64,000 bases of DNA from Thermoproteota archaeon (lineage in GTDB: Archaea > Korarchaeota > JAOZGF01 > JAOZFZ01), in NCBI GenBank assembly GCA_027492035.1, contig JAOZFT010000035.1, positions 1-64,000 on the forward strand. Direction: 5' to 3'. Within the stretch, counting starts at the first letter, position 1. Each line of letters opens with the position of its first letter. The notes below the pieces were generated by a model. That model made no database searches. It was not told the DNA's origin and worked only from the letters and a program-made list of their open reading frames with translations. The position numbers and the translations under genes were made by a program. This document shows, piece after piece, positions 49,153 through 52,702 of the stretch.

Positions 49153-49917
49153 GTGAGTGGGTTAGGAATGAAATGTCCTAATTGCGGTTTTGAAAACGCT
49201 GATAGCGCTAAGTTCTGTGGAAAATGTGGGTACCCTTTAACAAGTGGAGGAAAAGAACCTCCTACTCCTGAAACATCTGTTGTCTCAGCACCTACTTCTG
49301 CTTCACAGCCTCCCACTCTAACCCTTCCACAGACACAGCCTCAACTATCTACCTCTACGGCTCAAGCTATTCCTTCCTCATCTACGCATTTCGGTTTCAA
49401 AACATGCCCTAACTGTGGCTATATACTTCCACCGGAAGCTTTTTATTGTAGCGTATGTGGGACAGCACTCGAAAAAACCACTGAAAAAGTTGAAGAAGGA
49501 AAGGTTATTCCTGCCGGTGTGGAAAAATCAACTCTTTCGGATGAAGTTGGTAAACTGATTACTGAAAGAGAGAAGCTCATTGAGAAAAGGAAGAAATTAA
49601 GGGAACTTTTTGAAAAGAAAGAGGTTGATGAAGAACTTTATCTTAAACTCGACTCAGAATACTCTCAAAAACTAAACTCAGTTGTAAGTGAGCTGGACAG
49701 TAAAAAAGTTGCTGTGGACGTTAGGTTGGAGGAAGTGGAAAACATAATCCTTCAAAAGAAAAAAGAGATAGAAGAATTAAGGGTACGGATGAAACTTGGT
49801 GAAGTGCCTCAAGATGAATTCCTTAAAAAGAAAGAAGAAACTGAGAAATTGCTTAACACTTTAGAAAAGGAAAAATCAGTCCTTGAAAAATCAAGGGAAA
49901 TAATAAAAATAAGTTAA
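49153..49917 (+). CDS. Zinc-ribbon protein with C-terminal CdvA-like coiled coil
   Basis: Two CxxC-x10-CxxC ribbons separated by a P/S/T linker; helical domain with ELFEKKEVDEELY and LRVRMKLGEVPQDEF turns. Confidence 0.7.
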   Translation: MSGLGMKCPNCGFENADSAKFCGKCGYPLTSGGKEPPTPETSVVSAPTSASQPPTLTLPQTQPQLSTSTAQAIPSSSTHFGFKTCPNCGYILPPEAFYCSVCGTALEKTTEKVEEGKVIPAGVEKSTLSDEVGKLITEREKLIEKRKKLRELFEKKEVDEELYLKLDSEYSQKLNSVVSELDSKKVAVDVRLEEVENIILQKKKEIEELRVRMKLGEVPQDEFLKKKEETEKLLNTLEKEKSVLEKSREIIKIS

Positions 49918-50020
49918 AAAATTAAAAATTTTTAATCGAAGAAAAGAATAGGAAGGGGTAATTGTGTGTCCCTCTTTATTTTTAAAAAAGTCGAGGAAGG
50001 TTTTAGAGGTTTGAAATGAA

Positions 50021-50545
50021 ATGAGTGAAAATAGGCCTTTAGGAGTAACAATATTGGCTATATTGATGGCTATAGGTGGAATACTTGGCATAATAGGAGC
50101 TATCCAAATCCTAACTAATCCCTGGATAAGAATTGCTGCTGCACTAAGGGCAGTAAATATTGGGTTAATTTACTTTTCCCTTCTACTTTCTATAGTTGCT
50201 TTACCTATAGCTTACGGCTTCTGGACAGGCTTAACTTGGTCATGGTATGCAGGTTTAGCTGTGAGTGGTTTATCAGCAATTACAAACCTCCTACAATTAC
50301 CAGGTGGTATACTTGGGTTAATAATTGATGCAGTAGTAATTTACTATTTGCTTCAACCAAATGTTAAAGAATGGTTTAAGGTTATGGGTGGCCCTACGCT
50401 CCCGGAAATAAGTTTACAAGCTAAACCTTCAACTTCAGAACCGTCCTCAACCCCCCCTCCTGGAATGAAGTTCTGCGTAACTTGTAGAAGAGCTATCCCA
50501 TCCTCTAACGTGTACTGCCCATATTGTGGAGCCAAGCAACCTTAA
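50021..50545 (+). CDS. Four-TM membrane protein with C-terminal zinc ribbon
   Basis: RPLGVTILAIL...YYLLQPNVKEWF membrane domain, then CVTC...CPYCG. Confidence 0.8.
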   Translation: MSENRPLGVTILAILMAIGGILGIIGAIQILTNPWIRIAAALRAVNIGLIYFSLLLSIVALPIAYGFWTGLTWSWYAGLAVSGLSAITNLLQLPGGILGLIIDAVVIYYLLQPNVKEWFKVMGGPTLPEISLQAKPSTSEPSSTPPPGMKFCVTCRRAIPSSNVYCPYCGAKQP

Positions 50546-50923
50546 ATGAGAGGTGTTCAGCAAATGTCCCAGGTAAGTTTTCCCGTTGTGACAAAAAACA
50601 TCAATTATATGCTTATGAGGCTTGAGAAAAATTTAAGGTCTATGCCAGGCCTCCAAGTTATTAGGCAAGGAAACAGTGCGGTAGAGGTAACTGCAAGCGC
50701 ACTGGGTGGCTTGCTTAAATCAAAAGCAACAGTCACGCTGAACTTATCAGGAAACTACTATTTTGTTTCGATAACCAGTACTCCCTCTCCCTTGGGGGGT
50801 AATGAAGCCTTAAACTATGCAAATGTAGCTGTTCAAAGAGCATTTTCAACTAAGCAATGCAACAACTGCAAAAAATTCATTTTCTTAGACGATAAATACT
50901 GCATGTTCTGCGGCCAAAAATAA
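50546..50923 (+). CDS. Small alpha/beta protein with C-terminal zinc ribbon
   Basis: CNNC...CMFCG; probable start ATG 50564 after GAGGTG. Confidence 0.72.
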   Translation: MRGVQQMSQVSFPVVTKNINYMLMRLEKNLRSMPGLQVIRQGNSAVEVTASALGGLLKSKATVTLNLSGNYYFVSITSTPSPLGGNEALNYANVAVQRAFSTKQCNNCKKFIFLDDKYCMFCGQK

Positions 50924-50956: not shown

Positions 50957-52702
50957 TTAAATTTTGAGGTGGGTTACCCACTTTATTTCTCTAAGATATT
51001 CTTTCGGTGCTTTAGTAGGTGAGTTAGTTAATAAATCTATTCCATCTTTGTTTTTTGGGAAAGCAATAACCTCTCTTATACTGTTTAAACCTAGTAACAC
51101 AGAAACCAACCTTTCTAAGCCTAAAGCTATTCCTCCATGTGGAGGAGCTCCGTATCTGAAAGATTCTAAGAGAAAGCCGTATCTTTCCATGTACTCATCC
51201 CTTTTTAAGCCGAGTAACTTAAATATTTTCTCTTGAATCTCTGCTTTATTGTTTCTTATGCTTCCTCCCCCAACCTCCCACCCATTCAAAACTAGGTCGT
51301 AAGCATCAGCTTCAACCTTTAAAGGGTTCTCTTCAAGTAATGCTTCCTCCCCCCTCTTCGGCGCCGTGAAAGGATGATGTGTTGGTTTAAGTTTTCCATC
51401 CTCTTGGCTCAATTCGAAAAGAGGGGGATTTATAATCCAGACAAACCTGTATTTTTCTTCATCCAACAAATCTAGGCTGTAGGCTATCACTCTCCTGGCT
51501 TCATTTAATGCTTTCAAAACGTTCTCTCTCTCCCCAAGTGCAAGGATGGATGTTGAATTTTCCATTTCTTTCCTTGGCGAACTGTCATTTTTACTTGTTC
51601 CAATAAATTCTTTTCTTTTCTCCCCTTCCTTGAATAAGTAAAGGTTTACTCTGTTTCTTTCAGCTATTTCCTTCAGTTTTTGATTCATTTTTCCAGTTTC
51701 TCTGTTTAATAATTCGTTAATTGTTTCTTTTTCTAGAACAATTTTTCCTCCTTCAACTGGTTCTTTAAATCTAACTATCTCTAGCCCTTTTATTCTCAAA
51801 TCAGGCTTGTCTGTTCCATACTTGTTTACTGATAAACTGTAACGTATTTTCTTGAAAGGTGTTTCAATTTTTACTTGCAAAGTTTCTTCAACCAATTGTT
51901 TCATCATCTCTTCCACTATTTCCATTAAATCCTGTGCTTCAATGAATGACATTTCTATGTCTAACTGTGTAAACTCGGGTTGCCTATCAGCTCTTAAATC
52001 TTCATCTCTGAAACATCTTGCAAATTGGTAGTATCTGTCGAATCCTGAAACCATCAAGAGCTGCTTATACAGTTGAGGACTTTGCGCTAAAGCATAAAAT
52101 TTTTTTGGGTGAAGTCTACTTGGTACAAGGAAGTCTCTGCTCCCCTCCGGTGTTGATTTAGCTAGGTAGGGGGTTTCAACTTCTACAAAACCTTTTAAAT
52201 CAAGATATTTCCTTAAAACCTTAACCACTTCGTTTTTAAACAAAATATTTCTTTGCATGAAAGGGGTTCTTAGGTCTAAGTACCTGTACCTAAGCCTTGT
52301 TTCTTCATGTGGATAAACCTCCTTTTTGAAACTCACGGGGAGTTTTTCAGCTTTGTTTAGAATTTTTAGTTCCAATATTTCTACTTCCACTTCACCTGTT
52401 TTCATTTCGGGATTTATTTGTGTTTCAGGTCTTTCTTTAACTTTCCCCTTTAATTGAATAACTGTTTCCTGAGTTATGTTCTTTAATTCTTTAAAGAAAG
52501 GATTCTTGTGATTCATCACTGCTTGGACAATCCCTGCTCTATCTCTTAAATTAATAAAAGCTAACTTGCCATGAACCCTTACACTGTCAACCCAGCCGCA
52601 AAGAACCACTTCTTTTCCAACTTCTTCCCTACTTAAATCTCCACACATGTGAGTGCGGTAACTTGTTCGGTAAACATGCTTTATTTCTACTTCAGGTTTC
52701 AT
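50957..52702 (-). CDS. aspS: Aspartate-tRNA ligase, bacterial type
   Basis: YRTHMCG, TPEGSRDFLVPSR, QSPQLYKQLLM, CFRDEDLRADRQPEFTQLD, HHPFT, GAPPHGG; 581 aa with a GAD-position insertion. Confidence 0.93.
   Translation of the reverse strand: MKPEVEIKHVYRTSYRTHMCGDLSREEVGKEVVLCGWVDSVRVHGKLAFINLRDRAGIVQAVMNHKNPFFKELKNITQETVIQLKGKVKERPETQINPEMKTGEVEVEILELKILNKAEKLPVSFKKEVYPHEETRLRYRYLDLRTPFMQRNILFKNEVVKVLRKYLDLKGFVEVETPYLAKSTPEGSRDFLVPSRLHPKKFYALAQSPQLYKQLLMVSGFDRYYQFARCFRDEDLRADRQPEFTQLDIEMSFIEAQDLMEIVEEMMKQLVEETLQVKIETPFKKIRYSLSVNKYGTDKPDLRIKGLEIVRFKEPVEGGKIVLEKETINELLNRETGKMNQKLKEIAERNRVNLYLFKEGEKRKEFIGTSKNDSSPRKEMENSTSILALGERENVLKALNEARRVIAYSLDLLDEEKYRFVWIINPPLFELSQEDGKLKPTHHPFTAPKRGEEALLEENPLKVEADAYDLVLNGWEVGGGSIRNNKAEIQEKIFKLLGLKRDEYMERYGFLLESFRYGAPPHGGIALGLERLVSVLLGLNSIREVIAFPKNKDGIDLLTNSPTKAPKEYLREIKWVTHLKI

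Follow-up and report, generated by a model that had tools for sequence, protein, structure and literature searches.

Three neighbouring genes in the window, the whole stretch of 64,000 nucleotides that was analysed, encode proteins that share one type of zinc ribbon, and the first of them (ORF1) carries behind its ribbons a helical domain that is distantly homologous to the coiled-coil domain of the archaeal protein CdvA. The second protein (ORF2) is membrane-embedded and the third (ORF3) has a small KA1-like domain. Our overall reading, to which we give somewhat less than even chances, is that the trio represents lineage-specific proteins that come together on the cytoplasmic side of the membrane and are docked via their ribbons. 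The separate parts of this reading differ in strength. The domain assignments across ORF1-ORF3, collected in Table 1, are very likely correct; a functional link among the three proteins is a tentative proposal, and ribbon-mediated docking as the mechanism is doubtful.

Table 1. Features of the three-gene ribbon locus, with positions in the window
Feature	Position	Strand	Details
ORF1	49153..49917	+	254 aa; likely start 49168 (249 aa)
ORF1 zinc ribbon 1	49174..49227	+	aa 8-25, CPNC-x10-CGKC
ORF1 Thr/Ser/Pro/Gln-rich linker	49240..49398	+	aa 30-82; T10 S10 P9 Q5 of 53
ORF1 zinc ribbon 2	49405..49458	+	aa 85-102, CPNC-x10-CSVC
ORF1 CdvA-like three-helix coiled-coil domain	49534..49911	+	aa 128-253; turns KKEVD (155-159), LGEVP (215-219)
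Spacer ORF1-ORF2	49918..50020	+	103 nt; T-rich stretch after ORF1; A/T-rich TATA-like box ~30-45 nt before ORF2
ORF2	50021..50545	+	174 aa; four TM helices ~aa 8-112
ORF2 zinc ribbon	50474..50527	+	aa 152-169, CVTC-x10-CPYC
ORF3	50546..50923	+	125 aa; likely start 50564 (119 aa)
ORF3 KA1-like fold	50564..50845	+	model residues 1-94, beta-alpha-beta-beta-beta-beta-alpha
ORF3 zinc ribbon	50858..50911	+	aa 105-122, CNNC-x10-CMFC

An earlier note on this DNA, made from the letters alone, had described three co-oriented genes between 49153 and 50923 that all carry a CxxC-x10-CxxC ribbon. The ORF listing indeed places the genes on the plus strand at these positions, and the motif was recovered in four exact copies, two in ORF1 and one each in ORF2 and ORF3. 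ORF2 and ORF3 abut, as was also described, when the longest reading of ORF3 is taken (TAA directly followed by ATG); depending on the start of ORF3, the distance between the two genes is 0-18 nt. The presence of a GAGGTG ribosome-binding-like motif that fits the start 18 nt downstream, together with the 119-aa form in two of the three deposited versions, would favour the downstream start. For ORF1, the start that matches the deposited form of 249 aa is probably the right one. Given the T-rich stretch and the TATA-like box in the spacer, the transcript of ORF1 may be separate from that of ORF2-ORF3, a suggestion that is read from the spacer sequence only. When the flanking genes were searched for in the two most closely related genomes, no match to the GTPase was obtained at E ≤ 1e-10, and the matches to AspRS were only 30-32% identical and represented a shorter protein type.

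ORF1 is a soluble protein (pI 5.6), in which two zinc ribbons and a Pro/Ser/Thr linker that is probably disordered precede the CdvA-like three-helix domain. Within the helical part, the earlier note had pointed out two helix-turn units spaced as in the CdvA coiled coil. This spacing was right: in an ungapped alignment both units (aa 152-163 and 213-223) coincide with the turns of S. islandicus CdvA, such that E-V-D 157-159 and E-V-P 217-219 of ORF1 line up with E-I-P 99-101 and E-I-P 159-161 of CdvA, respectively. The alignment of the helical-domain family (A1) comprised 18 sequences, was ungapped over ~125 columns and displayed conserved motifs. When the family profile was compared to the PDB, the first match was S. 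islandicus CdvA (9s9g_A, E 5.3e-6, 29.4 bits), with profile positions 13-127 aligned without gaps to CdvA residues 76-190, and the next unrelated match was ~500 times weaker. The AF2 model of the domain (pLDDT 88) contains three helices, and in a Foldseek search with this model ranks 1-7 and 9 were all CdvA chains (probability 1.0, TMq ~0.6, rmsd 3.6-3.8 Å over 123-125 columns), at an E value of just 0.04.

The single-sequence comparisons were closer to the detection limits. The search with PF18822 that had been suggested earlier did yield a match, of 26.8 bits for the helical domain alone (24.7 bits for the whole protein and 26.1 bits in six-frame translation), yet this remains under the gathering cut-off of 30 bits. 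Two members of the family exceed that cut-off (31.4 and 30.4 bits) and, among 14 control genomes, PF18822 matched Sulfolobus alone at E ≤ 1e-3. A phmmer search with the single ORF1 sequence reached 9s9g at an E value of 8.8 only. The SMC-like LmuB coiled-coil model scored ORF1 at 24.7 bits, equal to PF18822, and the family profile gave at most 15 bits on the coiled-coil-rich proteins of this genome and 10 bits on an ORF of Rad50/SMC size. By sequence comparison, aa ~128-253 of ORF1 is homologous to the CdvA coiled-coil domain. The CdvA-like coiled coil that the earlier note had seen in ORF1 is a true, distant relative of the domain. A defence system was considered on basis of PADLOC matches of ORF1 to the coiled-coil part of LmuB/PbeC (19-25 bits) and rejected, as these were read as generic coiled-coil cross-matches; PADLOC returned nothing for ORF2 or ORF3 and NCBIfam nothing above any cut-off for ORF1-ORF3. 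Complex prediction with four copies of the helical domain, run without controls, scored 0.27 against a mark of 0.42 and was uninformative either way.

ORF1 is not a CdvA, because it possesses neither a PRC barrel nor the ESCRT-III-binding (E3B) tail. In aa 1-110, where Pfam recognized zinc ribbons only and no PRC barrel, the two ribbons on their tether take the place of the barrel. Furthermore, ORF1 terminates (aa 254) at the equivalent of CdvA residue 196, 6 residues past the helical domain, and therefore lacks the C-terminal linker and the E3B peptide; in the CdvA study of Drobnic et al. 2026 (PMC12818579) the E3B region, which was deleted in the CdvA-deltaC construct, is situated past CdvA residue 205. 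With the whole-protein CdvA model NF041007, which scored the Sulfolobus control above cut-off, the genome yielded zero matches at E ≤ 1. What ORF1 has in common with CdvA of Sulfolobales/TACK archaea (NF041007, arCOG04054; PF18822; S. islandicus structures 9s9g, 9s9h, 9s9i) is the three-helix coiled-coil domain. The hydrophobic head-to-tail contacts of the CdvA protofilament that are given in PMC12818579 (A90, L94, I100, I149, M153 and I156) correspond to K148, L152, V158, E207, V211 and K214 in ORF1, three out of six being hydrophobic. At most, ORF1 works like the scaffold half of CdvA.

The genome, which is 93% complete, was also searched for the partners of CdvA. cdvB and cdvC were not found. 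The best E value for MIT was 0.21, there was no match to Vps4_C, and the best E value for Snf7 was 0.56, a model that is weak even on the Sulfolobus control and insensitive to archaeal CdvB, such that a very divergent ESCRT-III could escape it. The genome does encode two FtsZ, SepF and four PRC-barrel genes. The PRC barrels are separate ORFs of 70-116 aa, located on other contigs than ORF1 and with unrelated neighbours. In Haloferax, PRC-barrel proteins work together with SepF and FtsZ.

The scaffold had been called undescribed, which cannot be maintained considering that the combination of a zinc ribbon and a CdvA-like domain is already in print in Makarova et al. 2024 (PMC11188069). There, arCOG03733 of the Thermoproteales is described as having an N-terminal zinc ribbon, a long coiled coil and a CdvA-like domain. 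Compared to that description, ORF1 is alike in that the zinc ribbon precedes the helical domain and the gene lies outside a cdv operon. It differs in having two ribbons and a 53-aa T/S/P/Q-rich linker in place of the long coiled coil, in the absence of an adjoining ribbon-less paralogue like arCOG03734 (the helical-domain profile has no match in ORF2 or ORF3) and in its host, which belongs to a different phylum and has a full FtsZ machinery. A second resemblance is to the Asgard Znr_PH_CC_SB proteins (asCOG cog.011556), in which, according to the same paper, zinc ribbons occur together with a small domain of a membrane-binding type and with a helical hairpin akin to those of CdvA and the steadiness box. 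Whereas these are single polypeptides with a PH domain, found in genomes with full ESCRT, the corresponding parts are here split over ORF1 (ribbons and helical domain) and ORF3 (KA1-like domain and ribbon) in a genome in which no ESCRT was found, and the likeness is one of parts lists.

ORF2 (pI 9.2) was described as a four-TM protein, and four hydrophobic segments are indeed apparent in a Kyte-Doolittle plot (~aa 8-112), followed by a Pro/Ser/Thr linker and a C-terminal zinc ribbon. The four-TM domain is 39-44% identical to stand-alone proteins of 139 aa. Several of the homologues (32-44% identity) carry DUF7144 (PF23636) or DUF2127 (PF09900), one cluster (P0161) scoring above the PF09900 cut-off; the score of ORF2 itself is sub-threshold (15.9 bits versus a Pfam cut-off of 27). 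Residues 3-126 resemble these small archaeal and bacterial four-TM proteins at 36-44% identity, and the linker and the ribbon are what ORF2 has in addition. ORF2 is predicted to be a DUF7144/DUF2127-like four-TM protein with a ribbon tail, a layout that was repeated in P0160 and P0161, the sole other clusters found.

ORF3 is a basic protein (pI 9.6) with a KA1-like alpha/beta domain and a C-terminal zinc ribbon. The small alpha/beta domain that had been noticed was modelled by AF2 from the single sequence (pLDDT 76) and takes the form beta-alpha-beta4-alpha. KA1 domains top both structure searches with this model, that is, Foldseek (E 1.9e-4 for 4yom) and VIA, where the matches ranged from 5iri (Z 9.7, rmsd 2.4 Å over 91 residues) down to 3ost (Z 7.6). 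The fold is like that of the KA1 domains of the MARK/SAD/Kcc4/Chk1 kinases and of the AMPK alpha C-terminal domain (5iri, 4yom, 5wi2, 1ul7, 3ost), and the KA1 domains of METTL16 and TUT1 were among the structural matches as well (Z 9.1 and 6.9, respectively). Lipid-binding KA1 domains are basic, and so is ORF3, with a net charge of +5 for the KA1-like domain. ORF3 differs from these domains in sequence (8-15% identity), lacks a Pfam match for this part and is not connected to a kinase. ORF3 is KA1-like in its modelled fold, and a shared fold in itself shows no function. Pfam and NCBIfam recognized nothing in ORF3 besides the ribbon; relatives were present in none of 40 related genomes and, among 5.8 billion protein clusters, in its own cluster only. 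The best scores in the ESM Atlas (≤0.82) concerned generic zinc-ribbon clusters and were treated as leads only.

The ribbons of ORF1 score above the Pfam cut-offs (DZR, PF12773, 54 bits; Zn_Ribbon_1, PF13240, 52.6 bits). Those of ORF2 (20.4 bits versus a cut-off of 25) and ORF3 (Zn_ribbon_15, 19.1 bits versus 28.9) are sub-threshold and contain the exact motif; PF13240 had no match in ORF3 in the Pfam scan. A CxxC-x8-13-CxxC motif was found in 33 of the 1,894 crude ORFs of the genome, 16 of which have the x10 spacing, and the locus is the sole run of three neighbouring ribbon genes among these ORFs. On basis of the genome counts such a run is expected by chance ~0.01 times for any spacing and 0.001 times for x10, and the clustering is thus beyond chance. 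Recent local duplication of ribbon DNA can be ruled out because the ribbons are just 36-50% identical in nucleotides. Zn_Ribbon_1-type motifs are present 14 times in the genome, and eight of these lie within two three-gene clusters. The second cluster, on contig C29, has the same layout, with genes for a TM protein that bears a ribbon, a soluble protein with two ribbons and a protein that joins a GRAM domain to a ribbon. It is non-homologous to the ORF1-ORF3 locus and recurs in the sister genus. More generally, Zn_Ribbon_1/DZR ribbons are borne by hundreds of unrelated architectures; ORF1 had 920 matches with E ≤ 1e-3, almost all of them through the ribbons, and a PHROGs search gave ribbon matches only, of unknown function.

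The helical domain was recovered in 34 of the 43 genomes of the phylum (matches covering at least 100 of the 129 profile positions), a count in which the 17 genomes that supplied rows to the profile are included. The genome's own paralogue carries an ectodomain and a TM helix, and other relatives carry SHOCT-like repeats. A profile search of genome contigs with a narrower alignment (A2) gave six loci, all helical-domain relatives in Thermoproteota/Nitrososphaerota MAGs. The full-length homologues of ORF1 are confined to a single cluster (P0003, 37% identity), and the homologous-protein search recovered for ORF1 and ORF3 their own clusters only. A metagenome scan with P0003 yielded 10 loci, and the four that were inspected (L038, L039, L045 and L047) proved generic double-ribbon proteins, e.g. 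cyclase/AAA fusions. A candidate orthologue in a related genome (G002:C87), whose match to aa 85-177 of ORF1 contains stops, was dismissed because it is a SHOCT-like fragment located where the contig ends. ORF1 and ORF3 occur together only on contigs of near-identical genomes, and none of nine inspected loci with ORF2-like genes had ORF1- or ORF3-like neighbours. The earlier note had named the lack of a CdvA match and the lack of the trio elsewhere as the observations that would speak against it: a CdvA match is present, and co-occurrence elsewhere was not found, considering the restricted occurrence of ORF3 and the fact that the membrane domain of ORF2 is stand-alone elsewhere.

Based on the above, the following arrangement can be envisaged. 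The three lineage-specific proteins would probably gather at the membrane, on its cytoplasmic side. In the soluble ORF1, a flexible tether rich in Pro/Ser/Thr carries two ribbons of the Zn_Ribbon_1 type ahead of the CdvA-type helical domain, through which ORF1 might self-associate. The helical domain looks like a general-purpose module under the membrane, given that in other proteins of the phylum it comes after SHOCT-like repeats or after a signal peptide with ectodomain and TM helix, and in ORF1 the ribbons would replace such anchors. The predicted cytoplasmic tail of ORF2 ends in the same ribbon type, and ORF3 would couple its small basic KA1-like domain to that type as well. The ribbons could then serve as a shared docking tag, by ribbon-ribbon contacts, by contacts between ribbon and helical domain or by all binding to one partner, in an assembly that would be unrelated to ESCRT.

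The main alternative is that there is no system at all, and that three unrelated, fast-evolving and non-interacting genes with a promiscuous ribbon tag became adjacent by chance in a variable spot between housekeeping genes. The orphan status of ORF3, the confinement of the trio to near-identical genomes, the abundance of the ribbons on other architectures and the promoter and terminator of its own that ORF1 may have are all consistent with this. It accords less well with a ribbon run that is seen once where ~0.01 would be expected, with the recurrence of the three-part layout in the C29 cluster and its conservation in the sister genus, and with the narrow gap between ORF2 and ORF3, and we consider it unlikely, albeit well worth bearing in mind. 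The reading in the earlier note, a membrane-tethered scaffold that steers ESCRT-type remodelling outside division, could appeal to the homology between the domain of ORF1 and that of CdvA and to the proposal, in PMC11188069, that zinc-ribbon proteins with CdvA-like or steadiness-box domains in Thermoproteales and Asgard are ESCRT-I-like adaptors. However, the link to ESCRT is unsupported because ORF1 has no E3B tail and the genome no matches to the Snf7, MIT, Vps4_C or CdvA models, and we give this reading hardly any chance.

A role in division without ESCRT could be imagined when ORF1 and its TM paralogue provide the helical domain in trans to the PRC-barrel proteins, like a CdvA that is split over several polypeptides within an FtsZ divisome, with the locus as a division accessory. 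CdvA is itself a PRC barrel plus a helical domain, and within the filament the PRC domain of one strand contacts the helical domains of the other strand (PMC12818579). The four stand-alone PRC barrels, SepF and the two FtsZ of the genome would fit such a role, as would the complex of H. volcanii PRC-barrel proteins with SepF (PMC11188069). Considering that ORF1 is unlinked to any PRC, SepF or FtsZ gene, with the PRC loci on other contigs, and that the helical domain occurs in many other fusions within the phylum, we give this scenario little chance. Finally, the ribbons and the basic KA1-like domain might bind RNA or DNA, or the proteins might be regulators like the zinc-ribbon protein ArnA. 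The first ribbon and linker of ORF1 match the N-terminus of Sulfolobus ArnA (5a8i, 8s05; E 0.005-0.007), METTL16 and TUT1, whose KA1 domains were among the structural matches of ORF3, bind U6 snRNA, and the high pI of ORF3 would agree with such a function. Against it, ORF2 is an integral membrane protein, the other fusions of the helical domain in the phylum are membrane-related and neither an HTH nor a known RNA-binding family was matched in Pfam or NCBIfam, making a regulatory or nucleic-acid-binding set very improbable. Meeting at the membrane face remains the reading that we prefer.

Taken by itself, the locus represents a variant that is specific to its lineage and lacks a conserved context. 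What makes it relevant is that the helical domain by which CdvA forms filaments is not restricted to ESCRT systems: in a small TACK-related phylum that divides by FtsZ it is near-universal, and its fusion partners there are zinc ribbons and SHOCT-like repeats as well as a membrane anchor. This distribution supports the view put forward by Makarova et al. 2024 (PMC11188069) that CdvA/steadiness-box hairpins are old, reusable building blocks. In addition, the repeated three-part ribbon clusters provide a concrete binding hypothesis for the common and unexplained Zn_Ribbon_1/DZR tags. In its widest form, which we regard as rather improbable, the Zn_Ribbon_1 tag would be a docking code, by which soluble multi-ribbon proteins gather ribbon-tailed partners on CdvA-like or SHOCT-like scaffolds, without ESCRT-III. 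Membrane members of such a code would be ORF2 and the TM-plus-ribbon proteins on contigs C12, C26 and C29, and lipid-binding-type members the KA1-like ORF3 and the GRAM protein of C29. The logic would be that of ESCRT-I, where a zinc finger meets a helical hairpin, possibly joined by the stand-alone PRC barrels, so that a CdvA would be distributed over several parts. A third locus, on contig C10, has a double-ribbon protein 25 nt upstream of a SHOCT-like helical protein, and the latter scores 22 bits with the helical-domain family profile.

The ORF listing confirmed the three co-oriented genes that the earlier note had placed at 49153-50923, here called ORF1, ORF2 and ORF3 (see the table). They are flanked by housekeeping genes on the - strand: upstream lie those for a GTPase, thioredoxin reductase and SufS, downstream those for AspRS and PurA. 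As deposited, ORF1 has 249 aa and ORF3, in two of the three members of its cluster, 119 aa, both with a start several codons inside the longest reading. A GAGGTG motif precedes the ATG of ORF3 at 50564 by 10 nt, so that the gap between ORF2 and ORF3 amounts to 0 or 18 nt. The spacer between ORF1 and ORF2 spans 103 nt; ORF1 is followed by a T-rich run, and an A/T-rich box lies 30-45 nt in front of ORF2. Judged from these sequence features, ORF1 may be transcribed separately, with ORF2 and ORF3 as a pair. For the adjacent AspRS, the matches in the two nearest genomes reached no more than 30-32% identity, with ORFs of ~421-427 aa, so that this enzyme may be a copy of bacterial type, absent from these relatives.

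Features discussed in the text (C-numbers without prefix are other contigs of the same genome)
Feature	Position	Strand	Length (aa)
ORF1	window 49153-49917	+	254
First ribbon and Pro/Ser/Thr linker of ORF1 (aa 6-69)	window 49168-49360		
ORF2	window 50021-50545	+	174
ORF3	window 50546-50923	+	125
AspRS, long form	window 50957-52702	-	581
Second ribbon-gene cluster	C29:6086-10306 (locus L098:1086-5306)		
Ribbon + DUF6677-like TM protein	C29 cluster	-	119
MG2-domain secreted protein, amid the ribbon genes	C29 cluster		631
Soluble protein with terminal double ribbon	C29 cluster		364
GRAM (PH-like) domain + ribbon	C29 cluster		142
Cys-rich protein with two terminal ribbons, then helical protein	C10:14834-15859		213 and 119
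TM-anchored paralogue of the helical domain	C12:31696-32616 (locus L037:1700-2617)	-	307
Single-pass membrane proteins with ribbon	C12:9530; C26:291		
Vps4_C match, sister genus	G001:C79:1289-1405 (locus L095)		303 (whole ORF)

The C-terminal helical domain of ORF1 (aa ~128-253) had been likened to the coiled coil of CdvA, the ESCRT-linked archaeal division scaffold. The Pfam model for the CdvA-like coiled coil (PF18822) did match aa 146-250, but at 24.7 bits, or 26.8 bits with the domain alone, it stayed below the cut-off of 30. Considering that the PADLOC model of LmuB, an SMC-like coiled coil, scored ORF1 identically (24.7 bits) and that a phmmer comparison of ORF1 with the CdvA structure returned an E-value of only 8.8, this sequence match would be weak on its own. 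Segments 27-35% identical to aa 115-254 were recovered from 28 of 40 related genomes, and 18 of these segments aligned with zero internal gaps over ~125 columns, displaying the conserved motifs KRxKLRDLLxxGEISExTFxKLDxEY and RARxxLGxIxxxEY. When the profile made from this alignment (the family profile) was compared to all PDB sequences, the best match was CdvA of S. islandicus (9s9g_A; E 5.3e-6, 29.4 bits), with profile positions 13-127 corresponding without gaps to CdvA residues 76-190; a non-polymerising CdvA mutant (9s9i) came second and the third match followed at E 0.0027. In the profile alignment both helix-turn units of ORF1 coincide with the two turns of CdvA, as the earlier note had proposed from their spacing. 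The AF2 model of the domain has three helices (pLDDT 88), and a Foldseek search of 350,542 chains put CdvA at ranks 1-7 and 9 (probability 1.0, TMq ~0.6, rmsd 3.6-3.8 A over 123-125 columns, E-value only 0.04). As to specificity, PF18822 retrieved two aligned family members above its cut-off from the 43 genomes of the phylum (31.4 and 30.4 bits) and matched, at E<=1e-3, Sulfolobus alone among 14 control genomes, while the family profile scored all other proteins of this genome at 22 bits or less and an ORF of Rad50/SMC size at 10 bits. Given the ungapped family, the ranks in both searches and the specificity in the controls, sequence and model together support the CdvA-like reading, with the domain as a distant CdvA homologue and not just a generic coiled coil. 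The best non-CdvA match of the family profile (E 0.0027), at rank 8 with Foldseek, was 8whn, the OST1/ribophorin I cytoplasmic domain of Prometheoarchaeum, which may carry a similar helical module.

Going by its sequence, ORF1 as a whole is not a CdvA, because zinc ribbons take the place of the N-terminal PRC barrel, the flexible linker and E3B peptide have no counterpart and the whole-protein CdvA model NF041007 found no match anywhere in the genome. In the construct described in PMC12818579 the linker and E3B peptide of CdvA lie beyond residue 205, whereas ORF1 stops six residues past its helical domain, at a position corresponding to CdvA residue 196, and therefore lacks both. The same paper reports that CdvA filaments are abolished by mutating the hydrophobic residues A90, L94, I100, I149, M153 and I156, the equivalents of which in ORF1 are K148, L152, V158, E207, V211 and K214. 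Only three of these are hydrophobic, so that head-to-tail polymerisation as in CdvA is no more than a possibility for ORF1. ORF1 joins an already described class of proteins that combine zinc ribbons with a CdvA-like domain. Makarova et al. (2024, PMC11188069) list among others arCOG03733 of Thermoproteales, in which a long coiled coil joins a zinc ribbon to a CdvA-like domain, additional CdvA-like proteins in Bathyarchaea, a fusion of FHA with a CdvA-like domain in haloarchaea and the Asgard Znr_PH_CC_SB family, which combines three ribbons and a PH domain with a coiled coil and a steadiness box, the latter similar in sequence to CdvA.

At E<=1e-5 the family profile had matches in 38 of the 43 genomes that represent the phylum (43 species only) in the collection searched; matches covering at least 100 of the 129 profile positions were present in 34, half of which (17) had supplied rows of the profile. 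The domain was encountered in three layouts. One, seen across the phylum (~300-330 aa), has a signal peptide, an ectodomain and a TM helix before the domain; the paralogue of this kind in the same genome, for which Pfam returned no family at E<=1e-3, adjoins a beta-CASP (aCPSF-like) nuclease gene, a pairing that is found in the sister genus as well (L016). In another (212-268 aa) two SHOCT-like or GvpG-like repeats precede the domain, and in the third two zinc ribbons do so, an arrangement that ORF1 shares with a single metagenomic cluster (P0003; 37% identity to ORF1, E 4e-29). In a tree of the domain (21 rows, none dropped) ORF1 and P0003 paired with support 81/68, as two long branches whose pairing is unsure, placed among the soluble proteins and separate from the TM-anchored ones. 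Given that one layout is membrane-anchored outright and that SHOCT-like domains have been predicted to be anchors to the inner membrane leaflet (PMC11237479), we read the domain, by analogy, as a module positioned under the membrane, for which the ribbons of ORF1 would be a stand-in for the anchor.

A role in ESCRT-type remodelling, as suggested earlier, was not supported: the 93% complete archaeal MAG (1.87 Mb) contained no match to the Snf7 (best E 0.56), MIT (best E 0.21) or Vps4_C models, in a search that very divergent ESCRT-III could escape and with a Snf7 model that is insensitive even to Sulfolobus, and ORF1 is without E3B. With two FtsZ, SepF and four PRC-barrel ORFs that stand alone, the genome has the complete set for division of the FtsZ type. 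ORF1 adds to its class a member from a phylum in which division is FtsZ-based and ESCRT was not detected. In the sister genus a Vps4_C match above the cut-off (32.2 bits) was found in an ORF at a contig start, and ESCRT-type ATPases may be patchy across the lineage.

ORF2 has four hydrophobic segments, in agreement with the four-TM protein that had been reported, and a basic C-terminal side. Over its first 126 residues it shares 39-44% identity with stand-alone proteins of 139 aa from one genus of the phylum, which had no ribbon and no ORF1- or ORF3-like neighbour at the 9 loci inspected. ORF2 furthermore shows 32-41% identity to ~75 clusters of small membrane proteins from archaea and bacteria (several with PF23636 or PF09900), and its complete layout of four TM helices, linker and ribbon is repeated in two clusters (P0160 and P0161). 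For ORF3 no relatives were found in 40 related genomes; of 5.8 billion clusters it retrieved none but its own, and from the ESM Atlas just generic zinc-ribbon look-alikes with scores under a useful level. The single-sequence AF2 model of ORF3 (pLDDT 76) has the order beta-alpha-beta4-alpha, followed by a poorly modelled ribbon, and KA1 domains ranked first in both structure searches: the SAD kinase (E 1.9e-4), then Chk1 and AMPK alpha with Foldseek, and SAD-B (Z 9.7, rmsd 2.4 A over 91 residues), AMPK alpha (9.3), METTL16 (9.1), Chk1 (8.5), MARK3 (8.2) and Kcc4 (7.6) with VIA-align (48,161 chains). The model points to a KA1-like fold. Acidic phospholipids are ligands of the KA1 domains in MARK, Kcc4 and SAD kinases, and ORF3 is basic (pI 9.6); a lipid-binding function is not proved by a shared fold.

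The trio contains four ribbons (two on ORF1 and one each on ORF2 and ORF3), all exact CxxC-x10-CxxC motifs, which bears out the sharing of one ribbon type by all three genes; those of ORF1 were above Pfam cut-offs (DZR 54 bits, Zn_Ribbon_1 52.6 bits) and those of ORF2 and ORF3, with exact spacing, sub-threshold. In a crude set of 1,894 non-overlapping ORFs from the whole 1.87-Mb genome, CxxC-x8-13-CxxC was present in 33 and the x10 form in 16. The trio locus is the sole run of three neighbouring ribbon ORFs, next to one other run of two, against an expectation of ~0.01 (x8-13) or ~0.001 (x10) triple runs from these frequencies. This statistically odd run counts for the trio as a system, as does a second ribbon-gene cluster, on C29, with the same three-part layout and unrelated core domains. 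Out of 14 occurrences of a stricter Zn_Ribbon_1-like pattern in the six-frame translation, 8 were within these two clusters, and parts of the C29 cluster, namely the GRAM-ribbon gene with the gene downstream of it, are found again in the sister genus (L089). Recent local duplication as the source of the ribbons of the trio was ruled out, since the four are only 36-50% identical in DNA. What counts against a system is the lack of conserved synteny: the contigs on which ORF1 and ORF3 occur together (149,922 and 107,016 bases) come only from near-identical genomes (clusters of at least 90% identity). A literature search returned no paper on the trio. The claim of a new system was not supported, considering this distribution and the class already described, and ORF2 and ORF3 are at best lineage-specific ribbon-tagged partners.

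The recurrence of a three-part arrangement of ribbon-tagged genes is the most useful lead. On C10, the Cys-rich ribbon protein is followed after 25 nt by a helical protein, the SHOCT-like unit of which matches the first half of the family profile (positions 9-61) with the top non-family score of the genome (22.3 bits), and other ribbon genes (on C12 and C26) encode single-pass membrane proteins with the ribbon on a short cytoplasmic tail. Together with the odd triple run and the C29 cluster, these arrangements suggest that the ribbon tag may mark proteins meeting on the cytoplasmic side of the membrane, and that ribbons tend to accompany SHOCT- or CdvA-like hairpins. The first ribbon and linker of ORF1 match the N-terminus of Sulfolobus ArnA (5a8i, 8s05; E 0.005-0.007), a regulator of the archaellum with a zinc ribbon and an FHA domain.
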